This document shows, piece after piece, positions 11,695-62,737 of a DNA stretch of 62,737 nucleotides. The notes below the pieces were generated by a model. It saw only the letters and a program-made list of their open reading frames with translations. It made no database searches and was not told the origin of the DNA. Position 1 is the first letter of the stretch. Every line of letters begins with the position of its first letter. Made by a program: the position numbers and the translations under genes. The stretch is from Deltaproteobacteria bacterium (GTDB lineage Bacteria; Desulfobacterota; Syntrophia; Syntrophales; UBA2210), in NCBI GenBank assembly GCA_016933215.1, contig JAFGBH010000056.1, positions 1-62,737 on the forward strand. The letters are read 5' to 3'.

Positions 11695-11841
11695 AGATCT
11701 CCGCAATCCCGTATAAGCGGGATCTCCGCTTTTGCTCCGACAGTTGCGGAGGATCTCCGATTGTAAAGGAAAATATTTGTTTTTTTATTCTCGCTTCCCC
11801 CGCCTAAAGGTAGCGGGATATGCGCTCGCTGTTCAATTCAA
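11691..11841 (-). mobile_element. Miniature IS200/IS605-like element, family A copy 1 (coordinates include the flanking TTGAA pentamer)
   Basis: Minus strand: TTGAA|TTGAACAGCGAGCGCA-hairpin-GCGAGAATAA...ATCGGAGATCCTCCGCAAC...TTGCGGAGATCTTCAA; homologous to six other copies in the window. Confidence 0.8.
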
Positions 11842-33525: not shown

Positions 33526-36500
33526 ATGCTGGTTCGGGAAACCACAGACGAAATAAAGTATCAGGTAGAGTGGTCCACACAGGACTTTCACGGGACGGGA
33601 ACATTTACCTGGCCCGATGGCAGTTGCTATGAAGGTGATTTTCACGATGGACACCTTCATGGTTATGGGGTCTTCACCTGGGCCGACGGGAGCAATTACA
33701 CAGGTCAATGGCAAAACGATTTGCCCCACGGAAGGGGTGTGTTTACTCTGCCTGATGGAAGTCAAACTGCCGGTGAATGGAACCAGGGAAGGGCAAGCAG
33801 ACAAGATGAACTGAAAAAGGCGGAAGAATCGAGAAAACGAGCAGAGGAAGCAGCGAGAATAGTTAGCGGAGAGGAATTAAAACTTACCGCTGAAGAGGAA
33901 GCGCTGAGGAAAAAGGCAGAAGAGGCCAGGCAAAGGACTGATGAAGCTGCCGCAAGGCTGGCTGAAGAAGAGGCGAAGCTCAAGGCTGAAGAGGAAGCGC
34001 TGAGTAAAAGGGCGGAAGAGGCCAGACAAAAAACCAAGGAAGCTGCCAGGAGACTTGCTGAAGAGGAAGCCAGACTCAAAGAAGAAGAGGAAACACGAAG
34101 AAAGGCAGAAGAGGCAAGAAAAGAGGCAGAGGAAGCGGCAAAAAGATTCGCCGAGGAAGAAGCGAGGCTCAAAGCTGAAGCTGAAGTGCTGAGAAAAAAA
34201 GCAGAAGAGGCGAAACAACGGACCGAAGAGGCGGCCAGAAGACTGGCGGAAGAAGAAACCAGACTCCAGGCCGAAGAGGAGGCGAGAGTAAAGGCTGAAG
34301 AAGCAAGACAAAAAGCCGAAGAAATGGCACGGAGACTTGCCGGAGAGGAAGCCAGAATAAGATCCGAAGAAGCAGAATTGACGAAAAAGGCCGAAGAAGC
34401 AAGGCAAAAGACCGAAGAAACGGCAAGAAGACTTGCTCAAGAGGAAGCCAAACTCAGAGCTGAGGAGGAAGCGAGCAGAAGAGCTGAAGAGGAATTGAGA
34501 ATAAGGGCCGAAAAGGCCATGAGAGAGGCAGAAGAAATATCATTTCGAATGGTCGAGGAAGAGGCCAGGCTGAAAGCTGATGAGGATGAACTGAGGAGAA
34601 GGGTTGAAGAATCAAGGGCAATTGCCTTTGAGACTGCCCGACGGCTTGCCGAGGAAGAAGCGAAACTGAGAGCCGAAGAGGAAGCGAGCAAGAAAGCCGA
34701 GGAGGAACTGAAGAAACGGGAGGCAGACGCCAAACAGCGGGCAAAGGAAGCGGCCATGAGAATGGCCGAGATGGAAGCCAGAATAAGATCCGAAGAAGCA
34801 GAATTGACAAAAAAGGCCGAAGAAGCAAGACAAAAGACTGAGGAAACTACCAGGAGGCTTGCCGAGGAAGAAGCCAGGTTGAGGGCCGAAGAGGAGGAGA
34901 GCAGAAGAGCGGAAGAAGAATTGAGAATAAAGGCCGAAGAGGTCAGGAAAAGAACCAGTGAAGCAAACCAGAGACTGGCCGAAGAAGAGGCCAGGCTCAA
35001 AGCTGACGAGGAAGAGTGGAAAATAAAGGCAGATGAAGGCAAACTTGAGGCTAAAAAAGAAGAGTTGAGAGCCAAAGCCAGTGCTGCACGACAGAAGATC
35101 GAAGCAGAAGCCAGGAAACTTGCCGAAGAGGAAAACAGGTTGAGGGCTGAGGAAGAAGCACTCAAGATAAAAGCTGTTAAGGCCAAACAAAATATTGAGG
35201 AAGCGGCGAGGAGATTGGCTGAAGAAGAAGCGAATCTCCGGATTGAAGAGGAGACAAGTAAAAAGGCTGAAGAAGAATTAAGAATAAAGGCCGAGGAGGC
35301 CAGACGGCGAGCGGAGGAAACAGCGGCAAGACTGTTAGAAGAGGAAGCCCGGCTCGCGGCTGAAGAGGAAGCATTAAGGAATAAATCAGAAGAGACGAGA
35401 CAGAAGGCAGAGGAGACTGCCCGCAGAATTGCAAGAGAAGAAGCACGGCTTCGCGCTGATGAAATGGCGCTTAAAAATGCAGAAGAAGAGGTGAGGATAA
35501 AGGCTCAAGAAACACGGCTAAAGACGGAAGAAGCAACAAAGAGACTCTCCGAAGAGGAAAACAGGCTAAAGGCTGAGACGGAAGAGTTACAGAAGAAGGT
35601 AGATGAAGCGAGGAAGAAAACCTATGATGCTGCCCAAAAACTTGCCGAAAAAGAGGCAAGGTTCAGAGCCGAAGAGGAGGCAAGCAAGAAAGCGGAAGAG
35701 GAGCTGCGGGTAAAGGCCGATGAAGCCAGACAGCGGGCCGAAGAAGCGGCACAAAGACTGGCAGAGGAGATCGAAAGAGCGAAGGAAGACGAAGAAAAGA
35801 CGCAGGAGCTCCTTGAAAAGGAGCGGTTTACCAGGATATCAGAAGTTGAAGGGGCCAAACGAATTGCCGAAAGAGAGGCCATGCTGAGGGCCGAAGAGGA
35901 GGCAAGCAAGAAAGCGGAAGAGGAGCTGCGGGCAAAGGCCGAAGAAGCCAGACAGCGGGCCGAAGAGGCTGCAAGGAGAATTGCCGAAGAGGAGACAAAA
36001 CTTCGAGCTGAAGAGGAGGCAAGCAAGAAAGCGGAAGAGGACCTTCGCAGAAAGGTCGAAGAAGCCAGACGGAGGGCAGAAGATGCGGCCCGGAGACTGG
36101 ATGAGGAAGAAGCCAGACTGAAATTCGAAGAAGAGGAGTTGCGTAAAAAGGCGGAAGACGCCCGACGGAGAACTGAAGAAACGGCAGAAAAGGTGGCCGC
36201 AGAAGAAGCGAGATTAAAAGCCGAAGAGGAAAAGCTTCGAAAGAAGGCGGAAGAGTTGGCAAGAATTTCTCTTGAAGAAGATGGAGCCGCGATTACCTCG
36301 GGGCGTATATCGAAGACCTTTCCTGACGGCAGCACATATGTCGGCGAAATAGTGAGGGGAATGCCACAGGGTCAGGGAGTTATGAACTATGCCGAAGGAA
36401 GCAAGTACGTCGGAGATTGGAAAGAGGGTAAACAGGATGGACACGGTATTCTTACCCTCTCCGATGGAACGATCTACATATGCCAGTGGAAGGAGGGTAA

Positions 36501-42296: not shown

Positions 42297-42493
42297 TTGA
42301 ACTGAGAAGCGAGCGCAATCCCCGCTTTATGAGGCGGGGTTAGCGAACGAATACAAAATAAACACTTTCCTTAATCCCGACAATCGGGATAAGTGAGGTA
42401 ACAAATTTATTTTCTGCCAGAAAACACAGAAAATAAATCCTAACTTACTTAACAGTCGGAGATTCCCCGCAACTTCTTGCGGGGGAACTTCAA
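42297..42493 (+). mobile_element. Miniature IS200/IS605-like element, family A copy 3 (complete)
   Basis: TTGAA|CTGAGAAGCGAGCGCA-hairpin...ATCCCGA-CAA-TCGGGAT...ATTTATTTTCTG/CAGAAAATAAAT...CCCCGCAA-CTTC-TTGCGGGG-GAACTTCAA. Confidence 0.82.
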
Positions 42494-42522
42494 TGCTTAT
42501 AAATCCTAAGGGGGGAAATTCC

Positions 42523-47478: not shown

Positions 47479-47688
47479 TTGAACTGAGCAGCGAGCGCAT
47501 ATCCCGTTGATTGCAGCAGGGTATGCGAGCGAATAAGAAATAACATTTTCCTTAATCCCGACAATCGGGATAAGTGAGTTAACGAATTTATTTTCTGCCA
47601 GAAAACACAGAAAATAAATCCTAACTTTCTAAACAATCGGAGATTCCACGCAACTGTCGGAGTTATAAGGGATTGCGGGAAGCTTCAA
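47479..47688 (+). mobile_element. Miniature IS200/IS605-like element, family A copy 4 (complete, longest)
   Basis: TTGAA|CTGAGCAGCGAGCGCA...GCGGGAAGCTTCAA, all three modules present. Confidence 0.82.
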
Positions 47689-58018: not shown

Positions 58019-59239
58019 ATGGAATATTTGCTTGTTTTTATAATCGGAATAGTCCTGGGTGCTTTGATAGCTCTGGTGATCAGCTGGATACGTGCCCGGG
58101 AAGCGAAGATGATTGCACAGGAACTCGTATCCGAGGCAGAGCATCAGAAGATGCAGGACCTGGAGTCAATAATCGGCAGAGTGAAAGAGTCCTTCGGGGC
58201 GCTCTCTATGGATGCCCTCTCAAAGAATACGGAGGAATTTTTAAAGCTTGCAAACGAGAGGCTTTCGAAACAGACGGAGTCTGGAGAAAAAGACCTCGAC
58301 GGAAAGAAAAAGCTCATTGATCAGACCCTTGAGGCGATGAAAACGGACCTGAAAGGGATTCAGGACCTTGTGGTTACCCTTGAAAAAGACAGGGAGAAAA
58401 AATTTGGAGAACTTACCAGCCAGTTAAGGTCGACCTCTGAGCAGACGATAAAACTGCAGGAGACGGCTCATCAGTTGAAAGTTGCGCTTTCAAGCACAAA
58501 GACCCGCGGTCAATGGGGCGAGAGAATGGCCGAAGACGTGCTGAGGCTGGCAGGTTTTGTCGAAGGAATAAATTACAGAAAACAGAAGGCGCTCGAAACG
58601 GCAGCGACGCGACCCGATTACACCTTTTTCCTGCCTCAGGACCTGAAGGTCAACATGGACGTTAAATTTCCTCTCGACAATTATCTTCGATATCTCGAAT
58701 CGGAAAGCGATACGGAAAGGGAAAAGAATAAAAACAGATTTCTGAAGGATGTGCGCGAGAGGATAAAAGAGGTGTTGACGAGAGATTATATTAATCCCGA
58801 AGAAAATACGGTGGATTATGTAATCGTATTCATACCGAACGAGCAGGTCTATGCCTTTATAAATGAAAATGATGCAACAATTCTCGATGCGGCCCTCAAG
58901 GATAAGGTGATACTCTGTTCACCCATTACACTCTATGCAATTCTGGCGGTGATCAGGCAGGCAGTTGACAACTTCAATCTTGAGAAAACCGCGGCTCAGA
59001 TACTTTCGCTACTCGGCACCTTTTACAAGCAATGGGATTCGTTTATACGATCCTTCGAGAAGATGGGAAAGAGGATAGACGACGTTCAGAAAGAATTCAA
59101 TCATCTTACCTCAACGAGACGAAATCAGCTTGAGAAACCCCTCAGGAGAATAGAAGACCTCCGAAAGCAGAGAGGAATAGACGACGTTGAATTGGCGGCA
59201 GGAGATGAGACATCCTTTATTGATGTTGAGGAAAAATAG
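58019..59239 (+). CDS. rmuC: DNA recombination protein RmuC
   Basis: N-terminal TM and coiled coil; RGQWGE, RPD..F.LP, DVKFPL, FIPNE. Confidence 0.92.
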   Translation: MEYLLVFIIGIVLGALIALVISWIRAREAKMIAQELVSEAEHQKMQDLESIIGRVKESFGALSMDALSKNTEEFLKLANERLSKQTESGEKDLDGKKKLIDQTLEAMKTDLKGIQDLVVTLEKDREKKFGELTSQLRSTSEQTIKLQETAHQLKVALSSTKTRGQWGERMAEDVLRLAGFVEGINYRKQKALETAATRPDYTFFLPQDLKVNMDVKFPLDNYLRYLESESDTEREKNKNRFLKDVRERIKEVLTRDYINPEENTVDYVIVFIPNEQVYAFINENDATILDAALKDKVILCSPITLYAILAVIRQAVDNFNLEKTAAQILSLLGTFYKQWDSFIRSFEKMGKRIDDVQKEFNHLTSTRRNQLEKPLRRIEDLRKQRGIDDVELAAGDETSFIDVEEK

Positions 59240-59287
59240 GCACAAAGGGACAGAGCAAAAAAAGGTAAATGGGCACAAAGGCACAAA
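59239..59287 (+). repeat. 8-mer repeat array (GGCACAAA) upstream of the four-helix-bundle gene
   Basis: GGCACAAA at 59239, 59272 and 59280, plus variant GGGACAGA. Confidence 0.75.
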
Positions 59288-59298
59288 GTACAACAACG

Positions 59299-59767
59299 AT
59301 GAAAACATACAGAGACCTTATTGTATGGCAGAAGTCTGTGCACTTTGTAACGGTAATATATCAAATAACAAAGACGTTCCCTAAAGATGAAGCCTTTGGT
59401 TTGATTTCGCAGATGAGGCGATGTTCTGTTTCTATCCCCAGCAATATTGCAGAAGGTTACGGCCGAAGATCAAAAAATGATTATGTACGCTTCCTGCAAA
59501 TAGCAATGGGGGCGGTCTTAGAGTTACAAACCCAGTTAGAGATTAGCCGGAATCTGAAATATCTTACTCCAAATCAACTTGAAGAGATTTACGAACTGAA
59601 CAGCGAGCGCAATCCTCGCTGCTGGCGGCGGGGTTAGCGAGCGAATAAAAAATGCAGTTTTCCTTAACAGTCGGAGATCCCACGCAACTTGTTGCGGGGA
59701 GCTTCAATTAAGTCGAGAAATTGAACGAATGCTTAGTAGCCTGATCAATAAAGTACGAGCAAAATAG
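59299..59767 (+). pseudogene. Four helix bundle protein (TIGR02436 / 23S rRNA IVS protein-like) interrupted by a miniature element
   Basis: MKTYRDLIVWQKS..FP.DEAFGLISQMRRCSVSIPSNIAEG..ELQTQL; native tail LSREIERMLSSLINKVRAK* (59708-59767) is out of frame after a 112-bp insertion. Confidence 0.85.
59591..59707 (+). mobile_element. Miniature IS200/IS605-like element, family A copy 5 (no middle module), intragenic
   Basis: ACGAA|CTGAACAGCGAGCGCA...TTGCGGGGAGCTTCAA. Confidence 0.85.
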
Positions 59768-59782
59768 TCTTCGTCTCTTGAC

Positions 59783-59890
59783 TTTGTGCCTATGTGCCTT
59801 TGTCCCTTTTATTATTACTATATGCCTTTTTGCTTTTGCTTTTCTTTGTGCCTATGTGCCTTTGTTACTTTGTTCCTTTGTTACTTTGCC
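59783..59890 (-). repeat. 8-mer repeat array, inverted relative to 59239-59287
   Basis: Plus strand TTTGTGCC/TATGTGCC/TTTGTCCC/TTTGTTAC/TTTGTTCC units at 59783, 59791, 59799, 59845, 59853, 59861, 59869, 59877. Confidence 0.8.
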
Positions 59891-59897
59891 TTTAGTA

Positions 59898-61604
59898 TCA
59901 CAAAATAACGTTCAGAAGACCTCCCACCGTCAAAGCCGACACAATCATAATCAACATTGACTTCAGAAAATCCCGCAGTCCCAATTCCTTCAAAAGAACC
60001 ACGAACGTGGCAATGCAGGGGAAGAACATCGTAAGGACCACACTTCCAATAACCATCTGTTTGGCCGTGAGTGCCGAAATTGCGAGCATTCCGAGGGCGG
60101 CATCTTTCCTGATAAATCCGATCACGATTGCCACGATCGACTCTTCGGGTAGTCCCCAGATGCCGGTAATCACAGGTGCGGCAAATCTCGCGACATAATC
60201 AAAGATCCCAAAAATAAAGAGTATATTTATGATAAAGACGGCTGCCAGGATTATGGGCACTGCCTCCCTGAGAAAATTATCAATTCTGTAGAAGAGTTTC
60301 TGGAAGACGATTCCCCATGGCGGGATCCGGTAGGGTGGAATTTCTATCAGGAGTTCAGGGCTCAGACCTTTTAATATCTTGTTCAGGATATAACCGAGTA
60401 TGATCCATACCAGAAAAAGCGTTCCGTAAACCATGGCCACATATTTTCCGCCGAATTTACCGACGAGTCCAAAAATCATCGCCTGGGCAGACGCGCAGGG
60501 AATAGCGATGGAAACGAGCGTCGCCGCGATGAAACGTTCCCGCCTGCTTTCGAGGACGCGCGTTGCCATTATGGCGGGCACGTTGCATCCAAGTCCCAAA
60601 AGCGTGGGAACAATAGCGAATCCGTGCAAACCAATTTTGTGCATGGTGGTATCCAAAAGAACGGCCAGTCGGGGAAGGTACCCGATATCCTCGAGGAGTC
60701 CTATGACCAGGTAAAAGGAAATAATATAGGGGAGTACCATCGCGATCGGGACATAAAGGCCACTGCTTAGAAGCCCGAATGACTCAATAAAATGGATATT
60801 CCCGGAGATAAGCTTTCCCACAATGACATCATGGAGTAAACCGCCTTCGCCCATAAGAACGCTCAGCTTTGTCAATACCGGCAGCCATATCTTATAAAAG
60901 AAAGGATCAAGGATATAAGTGATGAGATTTTCGCCGACAAAGCGGATGATATAGTAAGAAATGGCAAGGACCGCCGCGGCGATAAAAAGACCGGTTTTCG
61001 GTTTTACACTTGCGTCTTCGAGACGCTCAAACCACCGGTGATGACGATGGGCGATGGTCTGAATATTGTCTATGATTTTTCCTACGAAGGCCCAGCGTTC
61101 GTCACGGTTCATGGACGTTATATCAGAAGTGGTGGCACGTGGAATGCTTTCCGCCAGGTCTTTTATTCCCTGTCCCGTGAGACCCGAGGTTGCGATGACG
61201 GGAACGCCGAGAATAGTTTCTAACTTTTTACGGTCAATTGAAATGCCGCGGTGTTTTGTGTCGTCCCAGAGATTGAGTGCCACGACAAGGGGAATCTTTT
61301 TTTCCAGTAGCTGAAGGGTCAGATAGAGGTTTCTTTCGAGGTTGGTTGCATCGACTACATTGATGACCACATCGCCCGATTTCAGCATGTCGAGTGCTAT
61401 TTCTTCCGCCTCACTGGTGGGTTCGAGCGTATAGGTACCGGGTACATCGATGATTTCGGCCGTTTCATCGCCGGTCTTCATAAAACCGCTTGTATAACTT
61501 ACGGTGGTACCGGGGTAATTAGACGAAACAACGCGCACTCCCGTAAGACGGGAGAATATGACGCTCTTTCCGACATTTGGATTACCCATGAGCAAAATCT
61601 TCAT
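59898..61604 (-). CDS. feoB: Ferrous iron transporter B
   Basis: GNPNVGKS, NYPGTTV, DVPG, DATNLERN, GLGCNVPA, FFPCIAT. Confidence 0.93.
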   Translation of the reverse strand: MKILLMGNPNVGKSVIFSRLTGVRVVSSNYPGTTVSYTSGFMKTGDETAEIIDVPGTYTLEPTSEAEEIALDMLKSGDVVINVVDATNLERNLYLTLQLLEKKIPLVVALNLWDDTKHRGISIDRKKLETILGVPVIATSGLTGQGIKDLAESIPRATTSDITSMNRDERWAFVGKIIDNIQTIAHRHHRWFERLEDASVKPKTGLFIAAAVLAISYYIIRFVGENLITYILDPFFYKIWLPVLTKLSVLMGEGGLLHDVIVGKLISGNIHFIESFGLLSSGLYVPIAMVLPYIISFYLVIGLLEDIGYLPRLAVLLDTTMHKIGLHGFAIVPTLLGLGCNVPAIMATRVLESRRERFIAATLVSIAIPCASAQAMIFGLVGKFGGKYVAMVYGTLFLVWIILGYILNKILKGLSPELLIEIPPYRIPPWGIVFQKLFYRIDNFLREAVPIILAAVFIINILFIFGIFDYVARFAAPVITGIWGLPEESIVAIVIGFIRKDAALGMLAISALTAKQMVIGSVVLTMFFPCIATFVVLLKELGLRDFLKSMLIMIVSALTVGGLLNVIL

Positions 61605-62676: not shown

Positions 62677-62737
62677 TTGAACTGAATAGCGAGCGCATTC
62701 CCCGTTGCTTGCAGCGGGGTTAGCGAGCGAATAAAAA
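62677..62737 (+). mobile_element. Miniature IS200/IS605-like element, family A copy 7 (cut by the window end)
   Basis: TTGAA|CTGAATAGCGAGCGCA-TTCCCCGTTGC..GCAGCGGGG-TTAGCGAGCGAATAAAAA. Confidence 0.8.

Follow-up and report, generated by a model that had tools for sequence, protein, structure and literature searches.

The DNA analysed here is a 62,737-nt window, in which all positions below are counted from the first letter of the whole stretch, and the genome to which it belongs (labelled G000; 2.69 Mb, 102 contigs, 97.8% complete) carries in it a gene for a four-helix-bundle (4HB) protein of the PF05635/TIGR02436 family that is bracketed by inverted arrays of a short repeat unit. Gene and arrays together occupy the entire gap between two convergent protein genes. 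To the left lies rmuC (58019..59239, + strand), which matches the Pfam model RmuC with 238.5 bits; to the right lies feoB (59898..61604, - strand), which scores 352 bits with TIGR00437 against a cut-off of 315.65 and whose C-terminus, ...GGLLNVIL before the stop, is kept in relatives.

The first repeat unit begins inside the left host gene. The stop codon of rmuC, TAG at 59237-59239, overlaps it: the G of the stop opens the first GGCACAAA unit, and the junction reads TAG followed by GCACAAAG. The upstream arm (59239..59296, + strand) comprises about seven octamer units of the type G-n-n-n-C-A-R-A (GGCACAAA, GGGACAGA and others) in the order GGCACAAA GGGACAGA GCAAAAAA AGGTAAAT G GGCACAAA GGCACAAA GTACAACA, with a single 1-nt phase slip at 59271, and it abuts the ATG of the 4HB gene at 59299. 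Downstream, nine to ten complementary units with CTTTG or CTATG cores are spread over 59779-59893 in two blocks on the - strand. Block 1 (59779..59809) holds three to four units complementary to the upstream arm (CTTTGTGC CTATGTGC CTTTGTCC CTTT) and block 2 (59844..59893) holds six (CTTTGTGC CTATGTGC CTTTGTTA CTTTGTTC CTTTGTTA CTTTGCCT). Between them is a T-rich 34-nt spacer (TATTATTACTATATGCCTTTTTGCTTTTGCTTTT; 59810..59843, given no strand) that contains 6-nt TTTTGC units, and two segments related to it are found in the downstream arm of a same-genus Syntrophaceae metagenome-assembled genome (MAG), G001. The final unit stops 5-7 nt short of the feoB stop codon (TCA on the + strand, 59898-59900). 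The original prediction, made from the letters alone, had described units running from the rmuC stop up to the gene and at least eight complementary units after it, ending near the feoB stop, and both descriptions agree with these positions.

The clustering of the units is far from what base composition would give. Exact copies of GGCACAAA number seven in the window against 1.53 expected, with at least seven in 0 of 100 shuffles, and five of the seven fall within a 650-nt stretch (three on the + strand upstream, two on the - strand downstream). Period-8 arrays were recovered on both sides with Tandem Repeats Finder (TRF) and a repeat finder, which gave 24 inverted pairs, the longest with 46-nt arms that are 74% complementary. 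When 670 nt were folded as RNA, the arms closed the structure and the gene was looped out, block 2 of the downstream arm pairing with 59237-59285 (minimum free energy -183.5 kcal/mol, z -2.35, 0 of 20 shuffles as stable). An Rfam scan of 58900-60100 at E<=1 returned no match, and a consensus scan for sigma-70 promoters and intrinsic terminators found none inside the unit, its counts being at the level of shuffles. The low complexity of the arms is the one point that speaks for chance clustering of a common 8-mer or for an assembly artefact. That explanation can be given virtually no weight: it is refuted by the shuffles, by the presence of the locus in the independent assembly of a sister species, and by the replication of the pattern in ~100 loci, including a comparison of the flanks of 97 4HB genes, described below.

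The 5' part of the 4HB gene (59299..59592, + strand; codons 1-98, MKTYRDL...EEIY) scores 118.9 bits with TIGR02436 and 129 bits with PF05635, well above the curated cut-offs of 24 and 33.8, respectively. It matches the PDB entries 2GSC (E=1e-23) and 2RLD (E=5.7e-9), both deposited with five chains, and carries the family motif G-x2-R-x3-S-x3-N-x2-E as QMRRCSVSIPSNIAEGYG; its same-genus orthologue is 90-92% identical, and the full-length bundle has ~118 aa. The predicted family, and with it the kinship to the Avd proteins of diversity-generating retroelements (DGRs) and to the proteins encoded in intervening sequences (IVSs) of 23S rRNA, is borne out by these profile scores and structural matches.

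One correction concerns the gene, which is not intact. An insertion of ~112 nt that resembles a miniature inverted-repeat transposable element (MITE; ~112-115 nt as a repeat family, GAACTGAACAGCGAGCG...GGGGAGCTT or GAACTGAACAGCGAGCG...GCGGGGAGCTTCAA; 59593..59704, + strand) breaks the reading frame, and the read-through frame stops at 59635-59637. Its ends were defined by an alignment of 24 copies, which leaves the right boundary uncertain by 3 nt (59704 or 59707). It contains two internal hairpins, has no Rfam match over the copy at 59593-59704, and is present in G000 in more than 150 copies, many of them at contig ends; further copies in the window lie at 11742-11835 (- strand), 42302-42494, 47484-47655 and 62682-62737. 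The orthologue in G001 lacks the MITE and reads ...IYQLSREIERML... at this point. The 3' part of the gene (QLSREIERMLSSLINKVRAK and the stop; 59705..59767, + strand) is out of frame with the 5' part and holds the last 20 codons, with the stop at 59765-59767. It matches the invariant C-terminal block E103/E105/R106 (alignment A1), and an alignment with 30 homologues indicates that the intact protein would read ...EEIY-QLSREIERMLSSLINKVRAK. The MITE thus severs the last helix, with these invariant residues, from the reading frame, and the sequence is probably that of a family member that has become a pseudogene. As the whole genome yields one TIGR02436 match only, and that copy is split, there is probably no functional copy in the genome. 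Judged from its sequence, the cassette in G000 is decaying, the gene being split while the arms and solo arrays elsewhere persist.

The same architecture is widespread. A word-index search for the 4HB family gave 5707 matches, and the family's proteins are 60-70% identical across phyla. The sample of loci, 80 from species-representative genomes and ~22 from relatives of G000, comprises ~100 analysed loci from at least ten phyla, with hosts that include Thermodesulfobacteriota, Planctomycetota, Bacteroidota, Verrucomicrobiota, Nitrospirota, Elusimicrobia, KSB1 and SAR324, and in these the 4HB gene is again bracketed by inverted short-unit arrays. The layout recurs, with purine-rich units that reach the start codon and complementary units after the stop, and the units are lineage-specific yet matched across each gene. 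For example, GGCACAAA is the arm unit in Syntrophaceae, Planctomycetota, Opitutales and Nitrospirota, GGTTCAAA in Flavobacterium, GTTACAAA in Tenacibaculum, GTTGCTGA in other Flavobacteriaceae and GGCAACAA in Niastella; a 9-nt unit, GGCCACAAA, is found in one planctomycete and a 7-nt unit, GGCAGAA, in several Bacteroidota. Only 6 of 100 loci have an array of period 5 to 10 on neither side, and the commonest class of periods is (8,8). Flanking inverted arrays around collected TIGR02436 genes, which the original prediction had proposed to look for, thus recur in the loci sampled. The locus in the window belongs with them, since its PF05635 gene is flanked at either end, no more than ~150 nt away, by inverted arrays of the same unit, whose length in this class is 7-9 nt.

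The association was judged against shuffled sequences and against neighbouring open reading frames (ORFs). At least ten reverse-complement 7-mers are shared by the 120-nt flanks of 32% of 97 4HB genes, versus 1.6% of 244 neighbouring ORFs (Fisher 4.6e-15), and the duplex between the two arms has z < -3 relative to shuffles in 47 of 100 loci. These comparisons were preferred to a control with flanks displaced by 400 nt, in which the real arms formed the better duplex in only 60 of 91 loci and the displaced flanks sometimes still held long arrays.

The protein and the type and period of its arm units are inherited together. On the tree of the proteins, on which the phyla are intermixed, periods 7 and 8 require 8 changes, where 300 shuffles of the labels need 15-22. 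Sixteen distant proteins from the window's host order form a well-supported clade that is nearly all heptamer-armed. The window's own clade has 8-nt units, and there is essentially one transition between the two periods plus one small subclade. Moreover, two genomes (G008 and G002) each hold two 4HB genes, one of each kind, with different arms; the host, therefore, does not determine the type of arm. Gene and arms are in all probability a co-inherited, inserted unit, and the earlier proposal that gene and arrays form a single unit is upheld by the layout of ~100 loci and by this shared inheritance.

Several individual loci deserve mention. In a Nitrospirae MAG (L008; JAHFEP010000053), the cassette lies directly upstream of a cas2-like ORF (MLVLISYDVASDD...), which echoes the 18 published 23S_rRNA_IVP genes wedged in cas loci (Zhang et al., 2013; PMC3936711). 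The loci L091 (G027:C73) and L092 (G040:C58) are identical, flanks included, in genomes assigned to different families, which suggests either that the locus was transferred very recently or that the contig is shared or mis-binned. In the complete genome G093 (L122; C1:2314300-2315500), a five-core upstream arm is combined with a small hairpin (CAAAG x4, a loop, then CTTTG units) right after the stop codon; this hairpin takes the place of a simple complementary arm, and the build of the arms is thus not limited to one array per side.

Relatives of G000 provide both filled and empty versions of the site. In G001, the cassette lies at the rmuC-feoB site with its gene intact and with coding DNA that is 90% identical, and its arms measure 185 + 183 nt, versus 62 + 130 nt in G000; the arms thus change by whole blocks between sister species. 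In G007, which belongs to another genus of the family, no spacer separates rmuC from feoB; the two genes overlap by 17 nt, and the genome has no 4HB gene. In its congener G013, the junction is occupied by an unrelated ORF. The direct rmuC-feoB junction, for which a check of relatives had been suggested, therefore exists, and it favours insertion. By parsimony, which alone gives the polarity, the cassette would have entered a zero-length convergent rmuC-feoB junction in an ancestor of the window's genus. The 4HB gene is patchy among relatives, being present in 22 of 41 genomes at 0-4 copies each, fragments, pseudogenes and genes with in-frame stops included. A gene-less hairpin of the same unit type, at 37.8 kb of contig C65, is likewise filled in G000 and G001, with different unit numbers, and empty in the orthologous 20-nt spacer of G004.

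Filled and empty sites for cassette and hairpin, inverted end arrays, a patchy distribution and the mixture of phyla on the protein tree are also what would be expected if the arms were the terminal inverted repeats of a cut-and-paste or hairpin-dependent DNA transposon mobilised in trans by another enzyme, with the 4HB protein as cargo or accessory. This explanation is improbable. No transposase, integrase or reverse transcriptase (RT) lies nearby, in agreement with the earlier statement that no recombinase or RT is adjacent; both the neighbour profiles and a genome-wide search for RVT_1 came up empty in this respect. No target-site duplication is visible at the junctions, G000 has a single gene copy, and the copies within a genome have no common arms, unlike those of a recently active family.

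A further observation concerns the left junction. The upstream host gene often ends within the first repeat unit, as it does here (59237-59246) and at the upstream junctions of L003, L008 and L018, and the unit variants GTAACAAA, GTAGCAAA and GTGACAAA contain TAA, TAG and TGA. Since a period-8 array offers stops in all three frames, the arms, as far as their sequence tells, may guarantee termination of any ORF behind which they land.

The complementarity of the arms invites a reading by analogy with the rRNA IVSs, in which the arms would pair in read-through transcripts and be cut by RNase III, which would release the 4HB mRNA and insulate the transcripts of rmuC and feoB, pairing being the selected property. 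Arm complementarity is well above chance, and the minimum-free-energy fold closes on the arms; the IVS of Coxiella burnetii, which carries a gene of the same family (S23p), has a 28-bp terminal stem that is cut by RNase III and tandem heptamers before its ORF (Warrier et al., 2016; PMC4990558). Read-through from rmuC is made plausible by the lack of sigma-70 promoters and intrinsic terminators in the unit by consensus scan. However, the comparative data do not bear the mark of selection for pairing. When the arms of 46 loci were aligned without a wobble bonus, their mismatches showed no excess of sense G·U, with 67 sense-wobble versus 65 antisense-wobble (sense A·C) mismatches and 264 transversions, two thirds of the total. 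Similarly, permuting the order of units in one arm weakened the match in 0 of 15 informative loci. The arms are, moreover, unequal (62 vs 130 nt) and change by whole blocks between sister species, solo single-arm arrays occur without a partner, and a stem has no need of the core, linker and size pattern described next. A selected stem is thus a minority option, unlikely on this balance. Of the original proposal that RNA could fold into a stem with the gene looped out, the fold itself stands, whereas an evolutionary signature of it is missing from both the wobble and the permutation tests.

The internal structure of the arrays points elsewhere. Within-array identity at unit positions 1 to 8 is.96.83.78.77.93.91.80.94, i.e., positions 1, 5, 6 and 8 are 91-96% constant and positions 2-4 and 7 only 77-83%; the unit rotation was picked against a template, and the within-array identities were not optimised. 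Read continuously, the arrays consist of a conserved C-W-R-A-G core and a variable 3-nt linker. The commonest array length is 4.5 copies, with a collapse above 5.5; a run of five cores covers 37 nt, or 4.6 units, and each arm of the solo arrays in G093 often comprises exactly five cores. Replication slippage predicts identical units and a monotonic decay of length; neither is seen, and slippage alone is accordingly disfavoured. Taken together, the core/linker pattern, the mode of array size and the five-chain crystals favour about five periodic recognition sites for a pentamer. On this basis, the arms may tentatively be regarded as protein recognition arrays, a reading for which the odds stand somewhat below even, and the balance of the pattern favours loose arm pairing as a consequence of the arrangement instead of a selected feature.

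Arrays of the unit are not private to the gene, which modifies the first reading of the locus. With a core-chain detector, ~20 further arrays of the octamer unit were found in G000, mostly intergenic and with 3-5 cores, and some of these solo arrays form hairpins with a short loop (C65:37765-37847, C65:11167-11234 and C21:14426-14562). Arrays also occur at ~10 loci in G093, a complete genome with one close gene, and at ~10 in G008, where the arm unit GCGACAAA is also the genome's own solo-array unit. Such gene-less arrays and hairpins would be ORF-less relatives of the cassette.

Alternatively, they could be host intergenic simple-sequence repeats, akin to the cyanobacterial short tandemly repeated repetitive (STRR) sequences and the hepta- and octamers of Xanthomonas and Geobacter, that arise by slippage or are used by IHF/HU or by termination proteins; the 4HB gene would then merely insert into, or survive in, such hairpins. 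The abundance of gene-less arrays in G000 and G093 and the existence of arrays in genomes that lack a close 4HB gene suit this explanation, as do published inverted octamers in Geobacter metallireducens and heptamers in Xanthomonas and Nostoc, reported with no mention of the gene (Aklujkar et al., 2009; Rehm et al., 2015). Against it, one unit type flanks the gene in hosts of different phyla, the arms differ between two 4HB genes of one genome, the period follows the protein tree, and the marks of slippage are absent. The arrays also keep company with the gene: the three-unit pattern ACARAGNNACARAGNNACARA occurs in 7 of 41 relatives, all 7 with TIGR02436, and in 0 of the 19 genomes without the gene (p=0.008), and among 300 genomes of the class, arrays of CARAG octamers are present in 6 of the 7 with a homologue of >=50% identity but in 16 of the 293 others (p=5e-7). 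The reversed pattern gave 5 matches in the class genomes, and the enrichment is partly trivial, as the arms themselves match the pattern. Host repeats are therefore a rather doubtful source of the arms.

Two observations concern array types in G000 beyond the solo octamer arrays. A second short-unit family (GGATTAAG/GGATAGAG/GGGTAAGG) stands beside GGCACARA arrays at C13:3340-3390, C13:10951-11010 and C80:15330-15350; units of this type form the arms of a distant 4HB gene in G008 (L105, contig C30), and G000 has no such gene. At C78:63800-65300, two direct TTTGTGCC arrays bracket a ~150-nt module (gccgataaatcggc..., attgccgcgtcgc...cgcaatgac) that is present twice in tandem; octamer arrays thus occur in direct and not only in inverted pairs. 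Elsewhere in the window, long in-frame tandem repeats rich in Glu, Lys and Ala (96, 117 and 189 nt; GAAGAAGC-type) at 33889-36136 would indicate a gene for a large, repetitive, coiled-coil-like protein.

The explanation that best accommodates these results, to which we assign a probability of roughly 55%, is that of an IVS-like cassette, co-inherited with its arms and inserted as a unit, in which the arms serve as periodic recognition sites. Under this explanation, a PF05635/TIGR02436 gene (4HB, 'S23p/IVP', Avd-like) would travel with its own inverted short-unit arrays as a widespread cassette, built like an ORF-bearing 23S rRNA IVS and placed between protein genes. The arms would be two opposed arrays of a periodic recognition motif, typically with five cores each, and not a precise stem. 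Their proposed reader is the homopentameric 4HB protein itself, with one subunit per core, acting on single-stranded RNA or DNA. Because the upstream array overlies the ribosome-binding region, such binding would allow autoregulation, and the complementarity of the two arrays also lets them pair loosely, with the gene looped out. The architecture, its association across phyla, the joint inheritance of arm type and protein, the filled and empty sites, the core/linker pattern and the distribution of array sizes are observations; the binding of arrays by the protein, any processing of the RNA and the way in which the cassette moves are inferred.

A number of results weigh against this explanation. 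Solo arrays greatly outnumber genes, ~20 to one broken gene in G000, and genomes of the family f22 (G143, G176, G243, G258, G295 and G109) have many arrays with only distant or fragmentary 4HB genes, meaning that arrays can persist without an intact cognate gene. The period changes from 8 to 7 within a close subclade (L047/L051/L080 vs L054/L081), and proteins that are 55-70% identical have arms that differ in their linkers and even in their cores (CAAAG, CTGAG, CTAAG), which a strictly sequence-specific reader does not predict. The protein tree was built from few columns of a short alignment and has many unresolved forks, the heptamer and octamer clades were sampled by different routes, and the five-core mode relies on TRF calls, which under-count degenerate outer units. 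With regard to mobility, the rmuC and feoB junctions lack a target-site duplication, the genome with the empty site is of a different genus (rmuC 58-60% identical), no catalytic partner is found nearby (the neighbours are OmpA/VWA, FeoA and CspA), and the whole 97.8%-complete genome has no RVT_1 match.

To our knowledge, PF05635/TIGR02436 is a very large family without a known function, familiar only from rRNA IVSs, from scattered annotations as 'S23 ribosomal protein' and from its kinship to DGR Avd, and we know of no explanation, over decades, for the tandem 7-8-nt intergenic repeats of the STRR, Xanthomonas and Geobacter types. The locus and its relatives tie the two together. Four publications that treat one or the other (PMC4990558, PMC3936711, PMC2700814 and PMC4692102) do not link the arrays to the gene outside rRNA. 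The present case adds the octamer-armed clade and the period that follows the protein tree, the negative outcomes of the wobble and permutation tests, the five-core size limit, the filled and empty sites for both cassette and gene-less hairpin, and a dead gene with surviving arms and solo arrays. A directly testable hypothesis, that a pentamer binds five spaced cores, is at hand, and culturable carriers are available in Flavobacterium, Tenacibaculum and Niastella. For annotation, such units explain small genes within operons and cas loci and many assembly breaks. A more speculative extension, which we consider doubtful as a whole, is that PF05635 pentamers are dedicated readers of five cores 7-8 nt apart and that gene plus arrays form a minimal self-propagating element; ORF-less arrays would then seed the unexplained 7-/8-nt intergenic repeats, 23S rRNA IVSs would be copies that landed in rRNA, and the spacing of subunits in the ring would dictate the period.

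Comparison with known systems places the locus more precisely. Like an integron cassette (an ORF with its attC site), it offers a small, promoter-poor ORF and hairpin-forming repeats between genes. Unlike such a cassette, it has arms on both sides and no integrase or attI, and in place of the R''-L''/L'-R' core sites there are tandem-unit arrays; a reading as an integron cassette was rejected because of the two-sided arms and the lack of an integrase among the neighbours. Set beside transposons bounded by terminal inverted repeats and beside MITEs, it gives a mixed picture: inverted arrays are present and empty sites exist, the gene has a single copy, and no target-site duplication is seen at the junctions. 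Avd, in turn, is the nucleic-acid-binding partner of an RT and has the homologous four-helix-bundle fold, pentameric in crystals. The Avd models nevertheless remain below their cut-offs (the bAvd Pfam model with 36.2 bits against 40, NF033474 with 32.4 bits against 80), and with no RVT_1 in the genome, a DGR was rejected; the locus has no RT genome-wide and no template/variable repeat pair, and DGRs have no counterpart of the flanking arrays.

For the proposed mode of recognition, a functional analogy without homology is provided by TRAP-type ring proteins, which read spaced short repeats on single-stranded RNA. The features in common would be a periodic core, free spacers and a repeat number equal to the subunit number, a parallel suggested by the five cores in the arms and the five chains in 2GSC and 2RLD. 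As for the arms, inverted pairs of four octamers (GTTGCTYN) and five-unit heptamers were described in Geobacter metallireducens as putative IHF/HU sites (Aklujkar et al., 2009; PMC2700814), and four-unit heptamers were described in Xanthomonas and Nostoc (Rehm et al., 2015; PMC4692102). Like the arms, these 'global regulator sites' and heptamers are intergenic and comprise 4-5 units of 7-8 nt, often as inverted pairs at variable distance, and GTTGCTGA, one of the arm units around 4HB genes in Flavobacteriia, can be likened to the octamers of Geobacter metallireducens. In those reports the arrays are treated as IHF/HU sites or G-quadruplexes, whereas here they bracket a PF05635 gene and co-vary with it.

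The closest parallel is found in the 23S rRNA IVSs of Coxiella burnetii and Leptospira, which also place short tandem units directly before a start codon and vary in unit number; a selfish or mobile nature has long been suspected for them, no enzyme being known. In Coxiella, three tandem heptamers (GACAGAT x3) precede the ORF in a number that varies among strains, and older proposals had IVSs as mobile (Warrier et al., 2016). The locus differs in its position, between the protein genes rmuC and feoB and not inside a 23S rRNA helix (9, 25 or 45), in its units of 8 instead of 7 nt, and in its long degenerate arrays, which contrast with the near-perfect 28-bp stem and show no signature of selection for pairing in the comparative data. 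As in an IVS, the ORF lies within terminal inverted repeats able to form a stem, here an imperfect one (74% over 46 nt). The locus is thus a member of a recurrent, essentially unpublished class, the IVS-like 4HB cassette outside rRNA, represented here by a form with 8-nt units.

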